IMG/VR virus record: IMGVR_UViG_2939121850_000001
From: a virus
Lineage: Duplodnaviria; Heunggongvirae; Uroviricota; Caudoviricetes
DNA length: 64,000 nucleotides
Reading direction: 5' to 3' (one strand)
Below the pieces are notes generated by a model. That model saw only the letters and a program-made list of their open reading frames with translations. It had not been told where the DNA came from and ran no database searches. Made by a program: the position numbers and the translations under genes. Shown here one piece after another: positions 13,049-24,959 of this stretch (its first letter is position 1; every line of letters begins with the position of its first letter).

Positions 13049-16000
13049 TTCATGCTCCGCATGCTGGACAAAATAAAGACAGGCGGATTCATGTGCGTGA
13101 TTGTGCCGCCGTCCATTGTTTCAGGTTCAAACATGAAGCGGTTACGCCTGCGCCTATCACGGAAAGCTGAATTTCTTGGTGCCCACCGCCTGCCTACCGG
13201 TACTTTTGACGCAAACGGGACCAGTACGGTCGTAGATGTGGTGCTGATGCGCAAACATCCGGCAGAGATGGCTGAGAAAATCCCCCTGGTGGATGAAAGC
13301 ACTCTTGAATCGGCAAATGTGCTTTGGCCAACGTTTATTTCTGGCAAGTGGTTTGAAAAGGATGGCCGCCGGTTTGTTCATGGCACCCAGGAAAAGGGCT
13401 TCCAGGGGCGTATTGAGGTTCGTGCCGACGGTCAGATTGATAACCAGGCTCTTAAAGCGAAGCTGATTCATCGTTTCGAAAGCCGTATCGACTGGTCTTT
13501 GCTCGATATGGCTGAACCGTCACCGACCGCAGACGTTGTTGGTGAAGGGGAAATGCGCCTGATTAATGGCGTATGGCAAAAATATGCTGGTGGTCGCTGG
13601 ATTGAAGCTGATGCCGGGAAGGAACTTAAGATCGATGCTGCCAGTTATGGCGCGGATAGCTGGGAGGCTCTTCAGCGTAACCTGACTACAACAGAAGGCC
13701 GTCTCGGCATGACATTTACCCAGATGGCAAATGTCCGCGATAAGTACACCACATCAATCAGCGACGATATGGTGCAGCTGGTGGACTGGATTAACAGCCA
13801 GCCTGAAAAATACCGTGAACGCTTGTATCGCGGGGCGATGATTGGCCGGATGTTAATTGAATATCAGGACATGAAGGCCGCCGGGCATAGTGCTGAACAA
13901 ATCGAACAGCAGCGCCTTTCTCTGGTATCCCGTTTGCAGGCAGAGATTGACCGTTTTGGTAACCCCGGTCGCGGTCCGATAGCGAAATTATCGGGGAGCG
14001 GTGCGCGCGCCTGGTTTGCTTTCCGTGGTGCAATTAAGCTGGATGGCACTATTTCTGACGAGCTGACAGGAAAGCTGGTTACGCATGATTCCAGCGCAAG
14101 TTATGACTCCACCAGCTATCAGGACACCCTGCGTTATCTCTACAGTGATCTCACTCGCGATCCAATCCAGCTCGATGATTTCCGCCTTGCGTTTACCGGC
14201 GAACTGCCAGCCAGTGATGAAGAGTTGCTTAATTTATTGGCCAGCACCCCTGGTATTGCGGTTTCACCGTATGGCGGGATTGTTCCGTTCGCCCGCGCCA
14301 CCAGCGGCGACATTAACGAGATAGTGGCTCCAAAACAGGAATTCCTCGCCACGCTCCCCGACGGTCCAGTAAAGAACAACGTCCTTAATCAGCTGGCAGC
14401 GATCGAAGAGAAGCGCATCAAGACGCCAGCAGAGAATATCCGGTTTAAGCTCAATAGCCGTTGGTTCGACCGTTCCGTCATTCTGGAATTTTTGCAGGAA
14501 AACGGCTATCCGGATCTGCGCTATGTGCAGTCAGTGCAGCTTGAAGGCGACGAAATGGTTTCTGACACCTATCACGGTGGTGATGGTCTGTTCGTCGGGC
14601 ACCGATACGGTGTCGTCCAGCGCAAGGATAAAGAAACAGGCGAGATCCGCTACGAGTGGGACCGTAAATCAGGTGAAAACGCGACCGGGTTCCCGGCACA
14701 GCTGGAAAAGTATCTCAATGGTGCGCGTATCGGTGGCAAAGATAGCGCGACGGCGAACGGCTACCGCGAGCAGATGGCACTGCTTGAGGACCAGTTCAAT
14801 AAGTGGATCAAGACGCACGATCGCTACGATGAGCTGGTTGCCAAATACAACGATGTTTTCAATAGCAATATCCCGTATGAACACTCTGGCGATCCGCTTG
14901 GGTTGAAGGGATTAAGCGGTAAGCGACAGCCATTTGATTACCAGAATAGCGAGGTGCGCCGACTGTCCGAAGATGGGCGCGGCATCCTGGGCTTCGGTAC
15001 CGGGCTGGGTAAAACCACGACCGCGCTGGCGCTTGAGGCGTTCAACTATGAGAACGGTCGTTCCACCCGTACTGCGTATGTAGTGCCTAAATCAGTGCTG
15101 GAAAACTGGTATTACGAAGCAAAAGAGTTTCTGAGTGAAGAGGCATTCAGTAACTACCTGTTCGTCGGTCTTGATGTGCTGATGGATGGCGATCAGATTC
15201 GCCAGGTGCCGGTGCTCGATGAGAACGGTAAACCTGTCGTTGGTGCAGATGGCACTCCCGTTATGCGCGATGCCCTTAAGCTGGCAGATGAAGCCACTAT
15301 CACGGCGCGGATGAACGCGATCCCGCACTCAAACTACCGTGCAGTCGTGTTTACCAAAGAACAATACGCCCGCATTCCGCTACGTGATGACACCGTAGAT
15401 GAGCATGCACAAGACATGCTTTATGACTTCGTTGCTGCCGGGCGTGTGGCCAGCGCAATGGACTCCGATTCCCATCGCAAAGAGGCGGCGCGTCGCCGGG
15501 TATTGTCGGAGTATTCAGATACCGGTACCGAAAAAGCAGAGAAGTATCCGTACTTTGAGGATATGGGCTTCGACAGCGTGATTGCTGACGAAGGCCACAA
15601 CTACCGCAATAGCTATAAAAATGGTCGCGAAGCGTCACAGCTGGCCTATCTGCCCACCAGCGCGGTGGCGCAATCGGCGCGAGATATGGCAATCAAAAAC
15701 GCGTACCTGATGAAAAAGAATGGTGGGCGTGGACCGGTTCTCCTGACTGCAACGCCAGTCGTTAACACCCCGATCGATGCATACAACATGCTTTCTCATG
15801 TTCTGCCGAAGGAATACTGGCAGAAGATGGGGATCTACGGTCCTGATGACTTCGTTAAATTCTTCGGCAAGACCAGGCTGGAAACGGTACAGAAAATCAG
15901 CGGTGAAGTTGAAGAAAAAATGGCGCTGGTGGGCTTTGAAAACCTTGATGCGCTGCGCGGCATATTCCATCGCTGGACAACGCTTAAAACGGCGGAAGAC

Positions 16001-19000
16001 GTTAAGGATACCGTGGAGATCCCGGAACTGGACGAACACCAGCAGGATGCACCACTTACTGAAGAACAACTGGCGGCGTATGAAGAATTGCGTCAACAGG
16101 CGGAAGCGGCAGCAAAAGCCAACAATGGCGTAACGACCTCGGTTAATGAAGACGGCGTGATTGAGCACGAGAAAGCCCGTCCGATCTTCTCAATAATCAG
16201 GGATATGGACCGCGTATGTACTGACATGGACCTGTACTATCGCCGGATCACCTATCGTTTCCTGCCGGAGTACGCCGATGCGGTGCAGCAGCTGGCGGAC
16301 AGTTTGCCTAAACAAGCCACCAGCGAAGACGACGACAGTGATGATTCAATCACGCAGCAATCGCAATACTCCCTGATAGATAAGGGCGAGTTTATTCAGT
16401 TGCAGGTTCCGGAAGCGTTCGAGCAGGAAGTGAATAAGCGCCTGGCCAAGTTTGGCATTGACGAACAGACCGTAACTCACCCCGTTACGCCCAAATACGT
16501 GAAGCTGATTGCCACGCTGAAGGAGTTTTTCCCGGAAGGGAAGCAAATCATCTTCACCGACGAAAAAACGCAGCACCAGAAGCTCAAGCGCATTATCTGC
16601 AATGCTCTTAACCTTGAACCTTCAAAGGTGGGGATCCTGAATGCTCAGACGGTTGCCGAGGCAGGTAAAACCGGTAAGAAACTGAAAGCGGTTAAACCGC
16701 CGAAAGAGTTACCGGATGAACCAACAGATGCACAGATAGCGAAATACAACGAGCAAATGGCTCTGTATGACGCCTATATCGCGCAGCAGAATGAAATGTC
16801 GTTGGGCGGTCTGGAAAAGATTGCAGCCGACTTCCAGGAGGGCCGGACTCCGATCATCATCTGCAACAAAAAGGCAGAGGTGGGTATCAACCTGCATCGA
16901 GGAACGACTGACATCCATCATCTGACGTTGCCATGGACACCAGCCAGTATCGCACAGCGTAACGGTCGCGGTGCCCGAGTTGGCTCCAACCGTGCAAGCG
17001 TTCGCGTTCACTACTACTGCGGCAAGGGTTCTTTCGATGAATACCGACTGAAGACGCTGAAGCGTAAAGCAGGCTGGATCTCCGATATCCTCCGTTCAGA
17101 TAAGTCAGAAATGGAGAACGCCGACGCCAACGATATGATCGAAATGCAGATGTATACCGCTAAGGATGATGGCGAACGTCTGGCAATGATGCAGGTTCAA
17201 ATGGATAAGGCGAAAGCCGCGCAACGCGCTCGCCAGAAAGAACAGGCTACTATCGACCTTCAGAACTACATCAAGGCGCAGCACGCAGCTGGCGAGGATG
17301 TGGAGGTACTTACCGCTGAATTAGAGCGAAGCAAAGCGGAACTTGAAAAGACCACCGCCGAGGTAGCTAAATTCAAACAGGCGGTAATGGCCAAAGCAGC
17401 TGATAACGCAGACTGGAAAGCCCGCTGGGGTAGCGTCCATCACACAGACCGTACGTTGTTAGCACAGTATCGCGCGTCGTTGAAAAGCGCCATTCAGCGC
17501 AAGGCTAATATCTCTCAAGCCATCTCCCGCTATGAGAAATTATTGAACCGTACTCAGAAGGCCGCGACGGATATCAAACGCCTGCGCCCGCTGGTGGAGG
17601 ATGCAATAAATAAAGGCATTCTGGATGTTGATCCTGACCTGGTTAACCATGCGAGTGAGTTCCTTGTTATCGGCGATCGCTCATGGCGTGTAGGCCAATA
17701 CTACGATTGTGCCGGTGATATCGTTCGCATTAAGTCGCTGGACTTCGACAGCCAGCGCGCAGACGTGGAGATTATCTTTACCTTCAAAGGTACCAAATCG
17801 GGTAACTGGGATGTGAAGACGCTGGATAAACAGGTTGATGTAACTCCCGATGAAGATGCTGTTATGCAGAAAATCAGTGGTGGCGTCTCCATCGCCGGGA
17901 TTAACGACATCATTTCCTGTGACGATTTCTACCGTTTCCAGCAGCGCGGCATGATCAAAATCACTGACTCATACGGCGTTCAGACTACAGAGTCAGGCTA
18001 TAGCATCGATTTTGTTGGTACCTATACGGACCCACTGAAGCATGCGGTTTACCCGGATCGCCGTGACGGCGCGCTGAAGTCGTCAATTGCAAAATGGGTG
18101 CTTGGTATGATGTCGGAAGGGAATAACCGCCAGATCCGTTCGGCAGAAACATTCCTGGTTGAACTGTTTGGCTCCAATTATGGCGATGTAATCGCGTCAT
18201 ACGGAGATACGCTATCCCCTGAAGCAATTCAGGAGAAAATAGCGGATGCGATCGCCAGAATGCCGGAAAAAACAAGCCAGGGGGCTACTCGTAACGGGGA
18301 TTCTGAACTTGAAGTCACCAATGCCATTTTCGGTACCAATGAGTTCCGGGCGTCAGATTATGAGATCACCACAGCACAGTTTGGCACCATTGGCATTTAC
18401 AGCAATAAAGACGAGATCAAACAGTCAATGGACGCTGCAAGCGCGCGCATTGCAGCAGAACGCAAAGCCAATCTGAATCATGCAGTTTCCGCGCTGACTC
18501 AATCGTGGGTAACAGCAATCAGGGAGGCCGCCACCACAGGAAAAATCACACCGGCAATTGCGGATGTCGTAAACGACGGCTCTAAATTTATGGATGCCTA
18601 TAAAATGGATGCGGTGCAGTTGCCATCAGCCTATGGTCAACTCAGCTATCGCATGACCTACAACCTGGTATCAATGTTTTCCGACCTTGCCATCCTTGGG
18701 CTGGTGGATCTTAACGAGGTTACGCCGGAATTGCTCAGCATGCGCAAGAATCATGTGGAGATATTGCAGAGAATTAACACGGTTCTTGCCGGGCGCACCG
18801 ATGAAGAGAAACAGGCCGACGCTGATCGGATAAACCTGGCCCTTGGCAACATCACGGAGGAAGAGATTGCCGCCAGAAACGAGAAACAAGAAGAGTTATC
18901 ATCAATACAGGGTGATGCCACCAGCATAGCTCAGTCTCTTGGTCTGAATTATCGCGTATCCACCGCCGACCTGAAGATGATGTACGCACCAAAATTCGCC

Positions 19001-19201
19001 GCTGGCGAGGTATTTGGGCTTCAGGAAGCCTCAGGCATGAAAGGCGTTCTTTTCCGTGCGAAAGACGCAATCAAGGCGAAATTCGGCGCTCGCTGGCTGC
19101 CAGCGAAGGCGAAGAACAGCGATTTCCCGGGTAACTGGTGGATTATCGAGACAAAACACAACGTGGCGGACGTTCTGGCCGTCATCCAACAATACGCATA
19201 A
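13049..19201 (+). pseudogene. darB: darB 3' fragment (helicase-containing body, 2049 codons)
   Basis: Helicase Walker A GFGTGLGKTT; 206 + 2049 codons = 2255 aa, the size recalled for P1 DarB. Confidence 0.85.
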
Positions 19202-19234: not shown

Positions 19235-19675
19235 ATGGCCACACTATCTGATACAATAAAACCGAATAAAACATATCTTGAGGCGGTACTCCGTACAGCG
19301 TTGTTAGGAAAGACAGAAGACGAATACGTTGATTTCTTCCTGTCAGGGCTACGCGGGCGATTACTGAAAAATCCCCGCCTGTACCGCAGCTATGGCCCAT
19401 ACTGGCCGGAAATTAAAAAATTATTACTGGAGCGCGGTTATGGTAATTTCGGTCGTCTCGTTGACCGTGACGTTCGCAAAATTTACCGTTATGACCGCCC
19501 GGCGCTGACGCTCATAGCTGCGACGCTCTACAGCCAGGAGCGTTTTGATAATGGTCAGATATACTCAGCCTGGCATTTACTGCCAGTGCCTGAAGAGGTT
19601 GACGACCAGGACTATGAGTTTGAGTCTTACGATTTGGAAGTTGAAGCCTTGGCACAGGCTGGAGAGAAAACTTGA
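19235..19675 (+). CDS. ulx: Ulx-like protein (146 aa)
   Basis: ORF between darB and lxc; named by synteny. Confidence 0.5.
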   Translation: MATLSDTIKPNKTYLEAVLRTALLGKTEDEYVDFFLSGLRGRLLKNPRLYRSYGPYWPEIKKLLLERGYGNFGRLVDRDVRKIYRYDRPALTLIAATLYSQERFDNGQIYSAWHLLPVPEEVDDQDYEFESYDLEVEALAQAGEKT

Positions 19676-19920
19676 AGAAGCGATACTACACAGTAAAGCA
19701 TGGGACGCTACGAGCATTGCAAGAGTTTGCTGATAAGCATAACGTTGAGGTGCGCAGGGAGGGGGGAAGTAAAGCTCTGCGCATGTACCGTCCGGACGGG
19801 AAATGGCGTACGGTCGTCGATTTCAAAACTAACAGCGTTCCCCAGGGCGTCCGCGACCGGGCATTCGAAGAATGGGAGCAGATCATCATAGATAACGCAT
19901 TGCTCCTGAATGCTGATTAA
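19672..19920 (+). CDS. lxc: Lxc/Bof-like C1 co-repressor (82 aa), TTG start
   Basis: 82-aa basic protein downstream of ulx; size and position match P1 lxc. Confidence 0.6.
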   Translation: MKKRYYTVKHGTLRALQEFADKHNVEVRREGGSKALRMYRPDGKWRTVVDFKTNSVPQGVRDRAFEEWEQIIIDNALLLNAD

Positions 19921-19956
19921 TTTATCGGGCAGTTTTATCTGCCCGATAAATTTTTA
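19921..19956. terminator. hairpin terminator between convergent lxc and SIR2-like gene
   Basis: Perfect 13-bp stem atttatcgggcag / ctgcccgataaat followed by TTTTT. Confidence 0.7.
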
Positions 19957-19966
19957 TCGACCACAA

Positions 19967-21274
19967 TTACACTATATTCTTAACTATAAGGTTGGCGTCC
20001 TTCAAGGTGCCTAATGTTTCAATGTGGTTTTTTATCATTAATCTATTTGAGGCAATTATTGCAGGCCATCGTGTTTCCCAAGCTCTGTAAGCATACCAAG
20101 AAACTCCCCAATTCCTTTCTTTACTCATATGACCCATCGAGTATTCAACTGCGTCTAAATATGTTTTTTCATACTTAGTATTGCTAACCTCTATGATGCT
20201 TCCAAAATATATAAGCCATTTTGCCAACTGTTCATATTGCTCCCACGCTCCGTTATTCCTTGTTAACTTTCTCTTTTTTTCTATTATCCTTTCGAAAAGA
20301 GAAACGACTTTATCATCATTCCAATCTAAACCTTCCGATATAATTGATGATATAATTTGATAAAATGAATCCTCTAATTTAAGATATTCATTTTTATAAG
20401 TATAAGCCCCCGAAACAACTTTTCTGATATTTTCGCGCGCTCTTTCAATGATGTCTTTAATGAGAGACATCTTATAACTTAATCGACTAAAGAAACAATC
20501 TATTTCTGTATTGTCAATTACCCTTATACCAAAGCAATAGAAGTAATAATCCTTCATATCTTGACTTACTTTGTTGCGAGATATCAAAAAGATATTAGAG
20601 CACAGGGCATTATTTTTCGAAAATTTTTTATAGTCATTTATAATTGCTTTAAGATTTGTGTCGCTTAAAGAATACCCTAATATCGCAACTGTATTTTCAT
20701 GCAGCATCGTACTAAGTTTTCGTGAAAAATAAGTATCGGAATTTATAAATCTGAAGTAATCATCTGAAGTGACAATCATATTTTTTGGCGAATCAATAGA
20801 ACCATGAATATGATATATTTTCACCTTGGATGGATACTTTGGAATTGGCAGACCGGGCGTGATAGACTGTACACTTTCATCTCCAACCAAGCATTCAGCC
20901 AACTTGTCATAATTTGTTGTAATGACACGGAATGAGTTTTTTTGGAAAAAATCTTTTATATTTGATATGTCTTCTCCAAGTTGAATTGGAGATATGATGT
21001 CAACAATTTCATCATAAATCGACTTACCCTCAATATTGAGCTTCAAAGATAGTATTTGTGCGGCTTCTTCAAGACTCAGTGCTGGTGGTTTATCATCAGG
21101 GAATAACGTGTCTTCCAACTTTTTGGCATTGTGAACTTTGCTGCAAACTTTTTTTAATAGTTCCTTCCACGTTGGAGCTTCACCGTTCGAGACTGCCTTT
21201 GAAAAGCCAGTCCCGGTAAATAGACAAAGCCTGCTTGTAGCGGTAGCGTATGCTAACTCAACATATTCGCTCAT
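19967..21274 (-). CDS. SIR2-like (DHS-like NAD-binding fold) protein with uncharacterised C-terminal domain, 435 aa; candidate defence NADase
   Basis: Motifs GTGFS (21-25), TTNYD (119-123), IYHIHGS (153-159); RBS ggag; AT-rich gene in a roughly 50% GC backbone. Confidence 0.7.
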   Translation of the reverse strand: MSEYVELAYATATSRLCLFTGTGFSKAVSNGEAPTWKELLKKVCSKVHNAKKLEDTLFPDDKPPALSLEEAAQILSLKLNIEGKSIYDEIVDIISPIQLGEDISNIKDFFQKNSFRVITTNYDKLAECLVGDESVQSITPGLPIPKYPSKVKIYHIHGSIDSPKNMIVTSDDYFRFINSDTYFSRKLSTMLHENTVAILGYSLSDTNLKAIINDYKKFSKNNALCSNIFLISRNKVSQDMKDYYFYCFGIRVIDNTEIDCFFSRLSYKMSLIKDIIERARENIRKVVSGAYTYKNEYLKLEDSFYQIISSIISEGLDWNDDKVVSLFERIIEKKRKLTRNNGAWEQYEQLAKWLIYFGSIIEVSNTKYEKTYLDAVEYSMGHMSKERNWGVSWYAYRAWETRWPAIIASNRLMIKNHIETLGTLKDANLIVKNIV

Positions 21275-21330
21275 TACTTACTCCATTTACTTATAGTTCT
21301 ATGGAGAAGTATACCCTAATGCATTGACGT

Positions 21331-21999
21331 TTATAGATAATTTCCTTTTCCAGTTAACTCCCCTTTAGGCACCCGTTTTTGTGCCAGTGTTTGGGTTCCG
21401 CGAATTATGTTAATCAGAGGGCTTAGTAACGATGATTCCTGGCGGGCATCAACTTCTCCTGCCATTGCCCTAATGTAGTCGGCGCTTGCAACGTTGTTAT
21501 ATTCCGTTGCGAAGCAGCATAACAACGTCAGAACGTGCTCTGTCGTTATTTCGCTCCAGTTGATGTTGAAAAATTCATCGCCTTTTTTGTCATGTTCGGA
21601 ATCGAAGATGCTTTGGTGAAGGATGTATTTGCCGGATTCCTTGCGCGGTAACTTGATCGCTTTCTGGCGTTCCAATTCCTTGTAAATCTGCATCGCTTCA
21701 ATCAGTACCGGTCTGCCGTTCATGAAGGGATCACGCAACCTTACACGCTGGCCAACTCGACCGGTAATAAAGCTGTTTTCCTCTTCCACCAGCACGATAA
21801 AACCCTTTTCCTCTTTTTCTCGCAATTCGCGCAGCAGCTGGAGTTCCATATCGCGGCGGCGTTCAGGGTAGCTGGTCCGCTCAGCCATTATCAGCTCATT
21901 GTTGATCCATGCGGCAGTCATTGACGCCGGTTTGCCGACGCTCATCGAAACAACGCATATTTTCTTATCCATAGCGCCCCTACAAAAAAGAAAAGCCAC
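21331..21999 (-). CDS. mat: particle maturation protein Mat-like
   Basis: 222-aa ORF between ref and the res-mod slot; named by synteny. Confidence 0.5.
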   Translation of the reverse strand: MAFLFCRGAMDKKICVVSMSVGKPASMTAAWINNELIMAERTSYPERRRDMELQLLRELREKEEKGFIVLVEEENSFITGRVGQRVRLRDPFMNGRPVLIEAMQIYKELERQKAIKLPRKESGKYILHQSIFDSEHDKKGDEFFNINWSEITTEHVLTLLCCFATEYNNVASADYIRAMAGEVDARQESSLLSPLINIIRGTQTLAQKRVPKGELTGKGNYL

Positions 22000-22160
22000 C
22001 AGCGGCGGCTTAGCAATACAACTGAAGGTAGCGCCCGGTACTCAGACTGTGCCGTCCATGGAATATTTGAAAAGGGATCCATCCGTACCGGGCGTGTGAT
22101 GATTCTGACTGAAGTCACTTGTCAGTTGTCAATCATTTATCATTAAAAATAATATATTTA

Positions 22161-22721
22161 TTAGTGCATGATGTTTGCCATCTCATAGGCGTCAGCCAGT
22201 AACTCCATCTCTGACTTGTTCAGCAGGGTGAATTCTTTCTTGCCTCCAACCACACCATCGGCATGAACAGGGACCAGCCAGGGGTATTTTGCTCTTACTT
22301 CAGCCGGTGCTGCATGCTGGTGGTGCCATCTACAAAGTGGCAATTGCTTTTTATGACAACCCGGCGCGGTACGACCGGAGATATGGTGCAGAGACACCTC
22401 TTCAGATATTACTCCATGCATGTAGCAGGCAATGCAGGGGAGAGTGCCAAGAGCATTGGCGATGGTCCGTTCCTCCGCCGTCGGTGTTCGCCCCTTCAAG
22501 CCACGAGATTTTATTTTTACCGCACTTTTCCGCGTTTTGCTGGCTGGTGGGCGCTCTTTCTGTTTAGCGATACGGCGGTCGATAGAATCCCGCATTTTCT
22601 GATATTGCGATTCTCGCCAGGCGGGGTCAGCCAACTTTTCCCGTTGCCGAGCGATCGCTCGTTCTCTGGCTGCCTTCTGCCACTCGCGGCGCTGTTCAAG
22701 TTTTTGTTCGATTGTTTTCAT
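22161..22721 (-). CDS. ref: Ref, HNH-type recombination enhancement endonuclease (186 aa)
   Basis: Starts MKTIEQKLEQ at Met27 of the ORF; Cys/His HNH-like motif CxxC...HH...CH; between cra and mat. Confidence 0.75.
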   Translation of the reverse strand: MKTIEQKLEQRREWQKAARERAIARQREKLADPAWRESQYQKMRDSIDRRIAKQKERPPASKTRKSAVKIKSRGLKGRTPTAEERTIANALGTLPCIACYMHGVISEEVSLHHISGRTAPGCHKKQLPLCRWHHQHAAPAEVRAKYPWLVPVHADGVVGGKKEFTLLNKSEMELLADAYEMANIMH

Positions 22722-22819
22722 ATGGCAAAAAAAAGGCGGCCTAATGGCCGCCAATGATGTCAAGGAGTGAAGTAATGGCAACGTCTTCGTAGTTGACAAA
22801 AACTGCGGCTAAATTATAG

Positions 22820-23332: not shown

Positions 23333-24364
23333 CTAATTGCCATCTTCCAGCAGGCGCACCATTGCCCCTGTTTCACTATCCAGGTTACGGATATAGTTCA
23401 TGACAATATTTACGTTGGTCCAGCCACCAGCTTGCATGATCTCCGGTATTGAAACTCCGGCACGGGCCATATCTCGCGCGGCTCCGACACGGGCACTGTG
23501 TCCAGACCAGGCCAGGTACCTCTGTCCAGAGTCATCCTTAGCCCCGTAAATCAATCGGTGAGTTGCTTCAAAAATCCCTTCTAGGGCGCGAGTTGATAGC
23601 TGGCTGGTGGGTGATGGCGAGGCAACACCATTTTTTCTGACCCGGCAAAACAGGTAGTTATTCGGATCATCAGCCACACCAGAGACAGAAATCCATCGCT
23701 CGACCAGTTTAGTTACCCCCAGGCTAAGTGCCTTCTCTACACCTGCGGTGCTAACCAGCGTTTTCGTTCTGCCAATATGGATTAACATTCTCCCACCGTC
23801 AGTACGTGAGATATCTTTAACCCTGATCCTGGCAATTTCGGCTATACGTAACAGGGTGTTATAAGCAATCCCCAGAAATGCCAGATTACGTATATCCTGG
23901 CAGCGATCGCTATTTTCCATGAGTGAACGAACCTGGTCGAAATCAGTGCGTTCGAACGCTAGTGCCTGTTTTGCACGTTCACCGGCATCAACGTTTTCTT
24001 TTCGGATCCGCCGCATAACCAGTGAAACAGCATTGCTATCACTTGGTCGCTGCAGCCCGGACCGACGATGAAGCATGTTTAGCTGGCCCAAATGTTGCTG
24101 GATAGTTTTTACTGCCAGACCGCGCGCCTGAAGATATAGAAGATAATCGCGAACATCTTCAGGTTCTGCGGGAAACCATTTCCGGTTATTCAACTTGCAC
24201 CATGCCGCCCACGACCGGCAAACGGACAGAAGCATTTTCCAGGTATGCTCAGAAAACGCCTGGCGATCCCTGAACATGTCCATCAGGTTCTTGCGAACCT
24301 CATCACTCGTTGCATCGACCGGCAATGCAGGCAAATTTTGGTGTACGGTCAGTAAATTGGACAT
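23333..24364 (-). CDS. cre: Cre site-specific tyrosine recombinase (343 aa)
   Basis: Matches recalled P1 Cre over its full length with a handful of substitutions; loxP lies 420 bp upstream. Confidence 0.98.
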   Translation of the reverse strand: MSNLLTVHQNLPALPVDATSDEVRKNLMDMFRDRQAFSEHTWKMLLSVCRSWAAWCKLNNRKWFPAEPEDVRDYLLYLQARGLAVKTIQQHLGQLNMLHRRSGLQRPSDSNAVSLVMRRIRKENVDAGERAKQALAFERTDFDQVRSLMENSDRCQDIRNLAFLGIAYNTLLRIAEIARIRVKDISRTDGGRMLIHIGRTKTLVSTAGVEKALSLGVTKLVERWISVSGVADDPNNYLFCRVRKNGVASPSPTSQLSTRALEGIFEATHRLIYGAKDDSGQRYLAWSGHSARVGAARDMARAGVSIPEIMQAGGWTNVNIVMNYIRNLDSETGAMVRLLEDGN

Positions 24365-24859: not shown

Positions 24860-24876
24860 ATAATTATTAGAGCAAT
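24860..24876 (-). promoter_or_regulatory. C1 operator (15/17)
   Basis: ataattattagagcaat, reverse orientation; paired with the next operator upstream of coi. Confidence 0.65.
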
Positions 24877-24942
24877 AAATTTTGAGAGAAAAATCCCACT
24901 CCACCAGCCAAAAACTGGATTGTTTTTCATAGTTGTTTGACA

Positions 24943-24959
24943 ATTGCTCTAATAAATTA
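24943..24959 (+). promoter_or_regulatory. C1 operator (16/17)
   Basis: attgctctaataaatta. Confidence 0.75.

Follow-up and report, generated by a model that had tools for sequence, protein, structure and literature searches.

A lone SIR2 gene in the res-mod slot of a P1-like element

We analyzed a 64,000-nucleotide stretch of a caudoviricete genome (IMG/VR virus record IMGVR_UViG_2939121850_000001), the whole of which we refer to as the window, with the focus on a gene for a SIR2 protein of 435 amino acids (aa) that lies between the genes lxc and mat. The flanking genes, darB, an ulx homologue, lxc, mat, ref and cre, mark the window as part of a P1-like element (Table 1). In P1, the interval between mat and lxc carries the EcoP1I res-mod genes, as a sequence-only reading of this DNA had stated, plus IS5. 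Alignments lose all similarity to P1 and to the P1-like elements JL22 and MH422554 exactly at the stop codons of mat and lxc, and the variable cargo slot can hence be set between these two codons. That reading had described a slot of about 1.4 kb with one gene, which holds, and its proposed limits of 19957-21330 turn out to be slightly too narrow at the lxc side.

The SIR2 gene is an intact, ATG-initiated open reading frame (ORF) and the sole credible gene of the slot, its only neighbors being lxc and mat; no TIR, HerA or Argonaute gene is adjacent, just as had been noted from the letters. It was likewise correctly perceived as AT-rich cargo in a backbone of about 50% G+C content (GC): the gene has a GC of 34.5% (32% at third codon positions) versus 48.5% for the whole window, and the value runs between 0.29 and 0.37 across the gene versus ~0.50 on both flanks. 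A hidden second gene in the slot, considered in view of the low GC and of internal plus-strand ORFs of 54 and 59 aa, was rejected since the minus-strand SIR2 ORF is conserved full-length across phyla. An Rfam scan of window positions 19600-22300 recovered zero RNA families.

Table 1. Coordinates of the SIR2 gene, its slot and the surrounding P1-like backbone in the window
Feature	Position	Strand	Basis or remark
SIR2 + alpha-solenoid gene	19967..21274	-	ORF, 435 aa; labeled 'SIR2 family protein' in RefSeq plasmids
SIR2 (SIRim / SIR2_2) NAD-binding catalytic domain, residues 1-255	20510..21274	-	GTGFS 21-25, N121, D123, H155, H157
All-alpha, Trp-rich solenoid domain of unknown family, residues 256-435; presumed sensor/regulatory domain	19970..20509	-	
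Variable cargo slot, lxc stop codon to mat stop codon (the P1 res-mod slot)	19921..21330	.	1410 bp
darB	13052-19201	+	
ulx homologue	19235-19675	+	
lxc, convergent downstream neighbor of the SIR2 gene	19672..19920	+	ORF; 97-99% identity to lxc of P1-like phages
Cassette-borne lxc terminator: hairpin TTTATCGGGCAG-TTTTAT-CTGCCCGATAAA, then TTTTTAT	19921..19957	+	read from the sequence
mat-SIR2 intergenic region, 56 bp	21275..21330	-	ribosome-binding site GGAG at 21281-21284
Best candidate SIR2 promoter TTAACT-16 nt-TATAAA, overlapping the mat stop codon	21330..21357	-	relaxed scan, 9/12
mat (maturation control), co-oriented upstream neighbor	21331..21972	-	ORF and annotation in related plasmids
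ORFs of the split Mat frame	21942..22118 and 21331..21999	-	
Omat (C1 operator), Pmat and late promoter LPmat, upstream of mat	22102..22170	-	100% identical to P1 2628-2696, where the sites are annotated
ref	22161-22799	-	
cre	23333-24364	-	

An N-terminal SIR2 domain of the defense type

The N-terminal domain displays the motifs GTGFS (residues 21-25), TTNYD (119-123, with N121) and KIYHIHGS (with H155 and H157), placed as the sequence-only reading had them, and all three are invariant across 40 homologues. It matches the Pfam family SIR2_2 (PF13289; residues 117-252; 85.6 bits versus a gathering cut-off of 24.5; E = 4.6e-24). The classical sirtuin family SIR2 (PF02146) goes unreported for the 435-aa protein even at E <= 10, and neither a CxxC motif nor a Cys4 zinc-ribbon module is found in it. 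The PADLOC models that match are those of defense SIR2 proteins only (PDC-S25, ThsA, LmuA, Dsr2 and Dsr1), with each match confined to the SIR2 core.

The best match among PDB sequences is DSR2 (E = 5.5e-10; residues 14-282), ahead of KomC, ThsA and human FAM118B. N121 of TTNYD aligns with the catalytic N133 of DSR2, the Asn of its ITTNYD motif, and H157 with its catalytic H171, the latter pairing being read from the PDB alignment, where H157 lies opposite the residue replaced by Ala in the DSR2 H171A entries. Both H155 and H157 had been put forward as catalytic along with N121; N121 and the histidines are indeed conserved, but the counterpart of DSR2 H171 is H157, not H155. An AlphaFold2 model, computed with the 40 homologues as input, has a mean predicted local distance difference test score (pLDDT) of 85.7, and with it Foldseek places DSR2 at the top rank (E = 1e-12), over ~500 aligned columns that reach past the SIR2 core. 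Profile match and structure comparison thus bear out the SIR2 fold that had been read from the motifs. The Rossmann-type fold is nearer to that of antiphage SIR2 proteins than to that of classical sirtuins, the structural similarity to SIR2 proteins of the NADase type, which degrade nicotinamide adenine dinucleotide (NAD+) in defense, being about twice that to deacylases. As judged from sequence and model, the domain is a SIR2 of the defense-type class termed SIRim (bioRxiv 10.1101/2024.09.18.613514) with an intact catalytic dyad, and it is predicted to have NAD+ glycohydrolase activity.

A C-terminal helical repeat dedicated to this SIR2 clade

Residues 256-435 form an all-alpha helical repeat of ~180 residues that contains seven of the eight tryptophans of the protein. 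The earlier verdict that this Trp-rich domain could not be assigned to any family stands, as sequence searches of Pfam, NCBIfam and PDB with the domain returned nothing significant; weak matches to BBH37 and P12-lipoprotein fell below the cut-offs and were rejected. When a profile of the domain was run against 1.84 billion cluster representatives, 98 proteins were matched; nearly all are 430-480 aa long and have the domain near residues 256-435, or are fragments thereof, and in each of the ten divergent carriers checked SIR2_2 precedes it. As it is found only behind SIR2_2 in proteins of 430-480 aa, the domain is dedicated to this SIR2 clade, in which the two-domain architecture is fixed. By analogy with other defense proteins considered below, it is most likely a sensor or regulator.

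Distribution, alleles and selection

The gene is present full-length in 61 of 5426 complete Escherichia coli genomes (~1%), with 65 of the 66 E. coli copies being plasmid-borne, and it occurs in 56 PLSDB plasmids; searches of the INPHARED phage collection by megablast and tblastn recovered no copy, the carriers being filed as plasmids. Public collections contain the exact 435-aa sequence, within a 324-member cluster, as well as truncated copies of the gene, and the protein gives a full-length match to phrog_7567 of PHROGs (817 bits). The wider family consists of proteins of ~434 aa with 50-61% identity, spread across Gamma-, Beta- and Alphaproteobacteria with a few members elsewhere and with chromosomal sites included, and both domains are strongly conserved in it.

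Four alleles, that of the window and those of WP_032271833, WP_112038434 and WP_044169699, were found in an identical slot with identical spacing, their coding regions differing by 12-17%. The pairwise ratio of nonsynonymous to synonymous substitution rates (dN/dS) is 0.11-0.16, and the gene is therefore under purifying selection. The divergence is unevenly spread: the SIR2 half retains 92.5-94% identity and the C-terminal half 68-83%, and identity along the gene is mosaic, with 95-100% over the 56-bp mat-SIR2 spacer and the first ~300 nt and 62-88% over the 3′ half. The spacer itself is 100% identical in the four alleles (window 21275-21330; positions 2809-2864 of loci L017, L018 and L019), which, together with the near-identical first ~300 nt, suggests either a recombination anchor or a constrained 5′ untranslated region or promoter. 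Immune sensor-effector fusions are expected to show just such a pairing of a conserved effector with a more variable second domain.

The mat-lxc slot as a defense hotspot

A survey of the same interval in other P1-like elements, which had been suggested from the outset, revealed varied cargos. In the P1-like Salmonella phage SJ46, the slot holds a gene for a 373-aa RelA/SpoT protein (PDC-S33; E = 7e-87) on the same strand and in the same position as the SIR2 gene. As no other RelA/SpoT gene is annotated in the part of SJ46 examined, it is taken to be CapRelSJ46, the experimentally validated fused toxin-antitoxin defense protein that senses the phage capsid (PMC9712102). MH422554 has a DUF2971 (PDC-S31) protein and JL22 a PIN_12 (PDC-S34) protein in the slot, and, going by annotation, other plasmids have YaaC, GNAT, DUF1449, EAL, DUF4145 and type III restriction-modification (R-M) cargos. 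Given that P1-like elements carry CapRelSJ46, type III R-M, DUF2971, PIN or SIR2 there, the mat-lxc slot is a defense hotspot. For P1-like plasmids, the res-mod region had previously been designated 'variable region 1' (PMC9603915), and our search of the literature on P1-like elements, SIR2 and hotspots, as well as by accessions and PHROG identifier, found no description of a SIR2 cargo.

CapRelSJ46 resembles the SIR2 protein in more than its position and strand: it too is the product of a single gene, in which an N-terminal toxic enzyme is fused to a C-terminal sensor or regulator. Its enzyme is an unrelated RelA/SpoT tRNA pyrophosphokinase, however, and it is hence an analogue in position and logic only.

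Relationship to known SIR2 systems

The catalogues compared, PADLOC-DB v2.0.0 and NCBIfam, hold no system that matches the 435-aa protein over its full length. The closest parallel is DSR2 of Bacillus subtilis 29R (PDB 8wkt and 8k98, among others), which is likewise encoded by a single gene and has an N-terminal SIR2 NADase followed by helical repeats, with aligned catalytic Asn and His. However, DSR2 has ~1000 aa and large MID and C-terminal domains that bind the phage tail tube, as against 435 aa and a 180-aa solenoid here. The NCBIfam model of Dsr2 (NF041819) scores 23.3 bits versus a cut-off of 1400 and that of DSR1 (NF041818) 26.5 bits versus the same cut-off; the PADLOC Dsr2 model is matched only at profile positions 121-243 of 1222, i.e., in the SIR2 core, and no sequence similarity to DSR2 was detected outside about residues 14-282.

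Other SIR2 systems differ in their domains or partners. In Thoeris, ThsA includes a SLOG domain and depends on ThsB, a TIR protein, whereas here neither a SLOG nor a Macro match is seen, the PADLOC ThsA models cover only the SIR2 part, and no TIR-type ThsB gene lies beside the SIR2 gene in the window. KomC of Kongming is a bare SIR2 of 264 aa that needs KomA and KomB; the present protein lacks such partners and has the additional 180-aa domain. SIR2-HerA (Nezha) is set apart by its HerA gene, of which there is none in the window and none recurring at 50 loci of the family, SPARSA (SIR2-APAZ with a prokaryotic Argonaute) by an APAZ domain and an Argonaute neighbor, both missing here, and Avs5 (SIR2-STAND) by its central STAND NTPase domain, no NTPase match being found here and the C-terminal part being the 180-aa helical repeat instead. 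Lamassu with LmuA-SIR2 includes the SMC-like ATPase LmuB, for which there is no gene in the window, and the LmuA model covers residues 13-222 only.

The best PADLOC match of all is PDC-S25 (phrog_2695; E = 2.5e-27), a single-gene SIR2 defense candidate, but it aligns only residues 100-258 with profile positions 127-288 of 517, and its architecture is different. We know of no functional test of PDC-S25 itself. By the features compared, the protein is thus a SIR2_2/SIRim-domain protein that belongs to none of DSR1, DSR2, Thoeris, SIR2-HerA, SPARSA, Avs5, Kongming, Lamassu and PDC-S25.

A further candidate relative, and in function the nearest precedent, is 'sole-Sir2', a single protein of ~440 aa with a Sir2-like domain resembling the SIR2 of DSR2, which is reported to convert NAD+ to ADP-ribose in vitro and of which a homologue unlinked to CRISPR protected E. 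coli from T2 and T4 (bioRxiv 10.1101/2024.12.27.630466). The founding members of sole-Sir2 occupy the interval from cas3 to cas5c in type I-C operons and are followed by a solitary repeat unit, with homologues without CRISPR also existing (bioRxiv 10.1101/2024.12.27.630466). In sole-Sir2, as compared here by its description only, the Sir2 domain is C-terminal and preceded by an unrelated N-terminal part, the reverse of the order seen in the present protein. A unit like the type I-C repeat, GTGGATTGAAAY, is absent from the 97 loci of our SIR2 family that were scanned, and no Cas gene recurs among the 150 neighbors scanned or is found in the Pasteurellaceae contexts. Going by description only, that the two are the same family is possible, at somewhat less than even odds. 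The earlier suggestion of an undescribed subtype is therefore in keeping with the lack of a full-length system in either catalogue and uncertain in view of sole-Sir2. Our finding falls within a known kind, the single-gene SIR2 NADase defense, of which it would be a predicted case with an undescribed sensor-like domain in a defined hotspot; were sole-Sir2 identical, it would be a member of that family.

A predicted self-contained NAD+-depleting defense protein

We consider it the best explanation, with a probability of roughly 0.6, that the gene codes for a self-contained, DSR2-like anti-phage protein that acts by NAD+-depleting abortive infection and is an interchangeable cargo of the mat-lxc slot. 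In the proposed mechanism, the SIRim-type SIR2 domain would act as an NAD+ glycohydrolase, and the C-terminal alpha-solenoid most likely keeps this enzyme inactive and senses infection. The solenoid would probably do so by binding a protein of the incoming phage, as the tail tube is bound by DSR2 and the capsid by CapRelSJ46. Such binding could release or oligomerize the SIR2 domain, possibly as in KomC, ThsA, Avs5 and FAM118B, and the ensuing depletion of NAD+ would cause the infected cell to abort the infection, thereby protecting the lysogen population and the resident plasmid-prophage.

Several points weigh against this explanation. Both the NADase activity and the phage resistance are predictions. 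The structure matches of the C-terminal domain are generic solenoids only, and the sensing role hence rests on analogy. The rate of synonymous substitution is also higher in the C-terminal (3′) half, so that the divergence there is as much a product of recombination or mosaicism as of diversifying selection. Co-transcription of the gene with mat, which is under C1/Lpa control, is possible; a strict sigma-70 promoter scan from mat to the ATG found no site, and the best candidate of the relaxed scan, with 9/12 matching positions, is without the conserved final T. Lastly, a study that surveyed 846 P1-like contigs with DefenseFinder v1.3.0 reported type III R-M, dGTPase, PrrC and CapRel, and its text names no SIR2 system (bioRxiv 10.1101/2025.09.12.675607), which is consistent with novelty and gives the SIR2 gene no functional support.

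A bolder version, which we hold only tentatively and deem a little less probable than its converse, would see the protein as the first instance, in an E. coli phage-plasmid amenable to genetics, of a minimal 'mini-DSR2' immune receptor, wherein the 180-residue solenoid, found nowhere else, would be a novel module that senses phage proteins and thereby gates the SIR2 NADase. In it, the four alleles would recognize different triggers, and single-gene sensor-effector fusions (SIR2, CapRel, DUF2971, PIN) would be swapped in and out of the slot and driven by a promoter that is part of the mat stop codon.

Depletion of NAD+ by SIR2 proteins is a well-established means of defense; the gap to which this family speaks is the way in which infection is sensed by small SIR2 proteins that stand alone. 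Specialists would not be surprised by the general idea; the value of the family lies in its compactness (two domains in 435 aa, one of them a dedicated, uncharacterized sensor-like domain), its setting on a natural E. coli element and the natural variation in the putative sensor. Indeed, alleles that diverge in the sensor within an identical context make the identification of the trigger and the swapping of specificity directly testable. The P1 'res-mod' region in turn emerges as a hotspot of single-gene or otherwise compact defense (type III R-M, CapRel, SIR2, DUF2971 and PIN). As resistance genes are disseminated by P1-like elements among E. coli and Salmonella of clinical and livestock origin, these observations have a bearing on phage therapy and on the competition between mobile elements in such hosts.

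Alternative explanations and expression

An alternative that we regard as unlikely is a split system in which the protein is only the effector and is activated by a signal molecule or partner protein from another locus of the plasmid or chromosome, as in the pairs ThsA-ThsB, KomC-KomA/B and LmuA-LmuB. The protein, however, has no SLOG, Macro or other known ligand domain, and a conserved partner, sought by an all-against-all BLAST of the neighbors at 50 species-level loci, was not found: each neighbor family is limited to four loci at most, and none keeps a fixed position. In Pfam and PADLOC scans of 150 neighbors, no family was seen more than twice. As neighbor families do not recur, we regard the SIR2 gene as stand-alone, in line with its being the only cargo of the P1 slot and with its homologues moving as a single gene between very different backbones.

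Slightly less probable still is a role in the lytic program of the P1-like element, wherein the gene would be transcribed with mat from Pmat/LPmat once C1 repression ends and serve, for instance, in the late exclusion of co-infecting phages or in remodeling of the NAD metabolism of the host while P1 grows. Since the gene is co-oriented and begins 56 bp past mat, with no terminator predicted between the two and with Omat, Pmat and LPmat the same as in P1, C1-repressed or late read-through into it is possible, and its own promoter candidate is weak. The sequence-only reading had seen no C1 operator in the interval and had inferred that the gene may be expressed in the lysogen; a scan allowing up to three mismatches confirms that the slot has no match, versus 15 elsewhere in the window, but the inference is weakened by the position of the gene just past C1-repressed mat.

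Against the lytic role, capRelSJ46, in the same position and orientation, works in uninfected cells from its own upstream DNA, 100-200 bp of which sufficed for function in a promoter-less vector (PMC9712102). The SJ46 counterpart of the promoter candidate, TTAACA-16-TATAAT (11/12; L016 2150..2123, minus strand), overlaps the mat stop codon and faces capRel; it falls within that 100-200 bp, and by analogy the site in the window may be a promoter too. In P1, JL22 and MH422554, where the cargo is on the opposite strand, the same site has degenerate -10 hexamers. Moreover, in the plasmid p07D18002_A_OXA (NZ_PV023060.1), mat has been cut to 78 nt beside an IS26 and has lost its promoter, and yet the SIR2 ORF (L018 2865-4150) and ~130 bp upstream of it are intact. 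Chromosomal homologues have no mat at all, and an unregulated NADase would damage the late growth of the phage itself. We take constitutive low-level expression of the SIR2 gene in the lysogen to be plausible.

It is also improbable that we are dealing with a sirtuin that modifies a host or phage protein, be it as an ADP-ribosyltransferase or as a deacylase (RefSeq has the label 'NAD-dependent protein deacylase'), with the solenoid recruiting the substrate and no bulk depletion of NAD+: the match is to SIR2_2 rather than the classical family, there is no zinc-ribbon cysteine motif, the structure is about twice as similar to SIR2 proteins of the NADase type as to deacylases, and the genomic context is one of defense and mobility rather than metabolic regulation. 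Finally, a plasmid-addiction (toxin) module or decaying, functionless cargo, which AT-rich foreign DNA on a low-copy plasmid-prophage and the truncated database copies might bring to mind, is very improbable given the dN/dS of 0.11-0.16 over four alleles, the full-length ORF in 61 complete genomes, the 50-60% identity kept across Proteobacteria including chromosomal sites, and the absence of an antitoxin gene.

Genomic neighbors of the homologues and further features of the backbone

The contexts of the SIR2 homologues are often defense-like or mobile. The homologue in Pasteurella adjoins GmrSD, SLATT and dGTPase-like HD genes, that in Halomonas lies among HNH, DUF4145 and DUF87 genes, and that in Paracidovorax is beside an SMC-like gene. 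A chromosomal homologue in E. coli (P0008; 60% identity) is situated directly downstream of a prophage integrase-like gene (loci L007-L010, 4616-7311), at a prophage-chromosome junction that adjoins the ccm genes, a position typical of prophage-borne defense cargo.

A gene for a dGTPase-like HD/HD_assoc protein lies immediately upstream on the same strand in Pantoea (L002 4628-5857; gap of 144 bp) and in Pasteurella canis (L102 and L103 6589-7980; gap of 20 bp). This adjacency in two unrelated genera may reflect either a neighbor in defense islands or an occasional functional pairing. ThsB-like TIR matches (E = 6e-52) were obtained for 2 of the 150 scanned neighbors (loci L020-L075), and further neighbors match type I R-M specificity subunits, mad3 and mad5 of MADS, Mrr_cat and NERD.

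With respect to the backbone, the lxc terminator hairpin has a weak T-run on the SIR2 strand and is kept, with an altered loop, in the remaining three alleles; the terminator scanner, which requires at least three G-C pairs followed by a T-run, did not report it on account of the AT-rich base of its stem. Another terminator-like hairpin, AAGCCGCCGCTGGTGGCTT, with a T-run (window 22011..21993, minus strand), lies past Pmat/LPmat and ahead of the 213-aa mat ORF, and it could be an attenuator of mat and of read-through into the slot.

Upstream in the Mat frame, a run of G residues at window ~21984-21987 (minus strand) reads GGGG versus GGGGG in P1; with one G fewer, the Mat frame, of 250 aa in P1, is broken here into two ORFs of 58 aa and 213/222 aa. 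The annotation of JL22 shows the same split, and the 642-nt version of mat is the one annotated in most plasmids. The 15 matches to the C1 operator consensus in the window (up to three mismatches), against 0.3 expected by chance, include those at 24860-24959 and 57163-57190, with a perfect site at 57174-57190, and fit an intact P1-type immunity circuit in this element.

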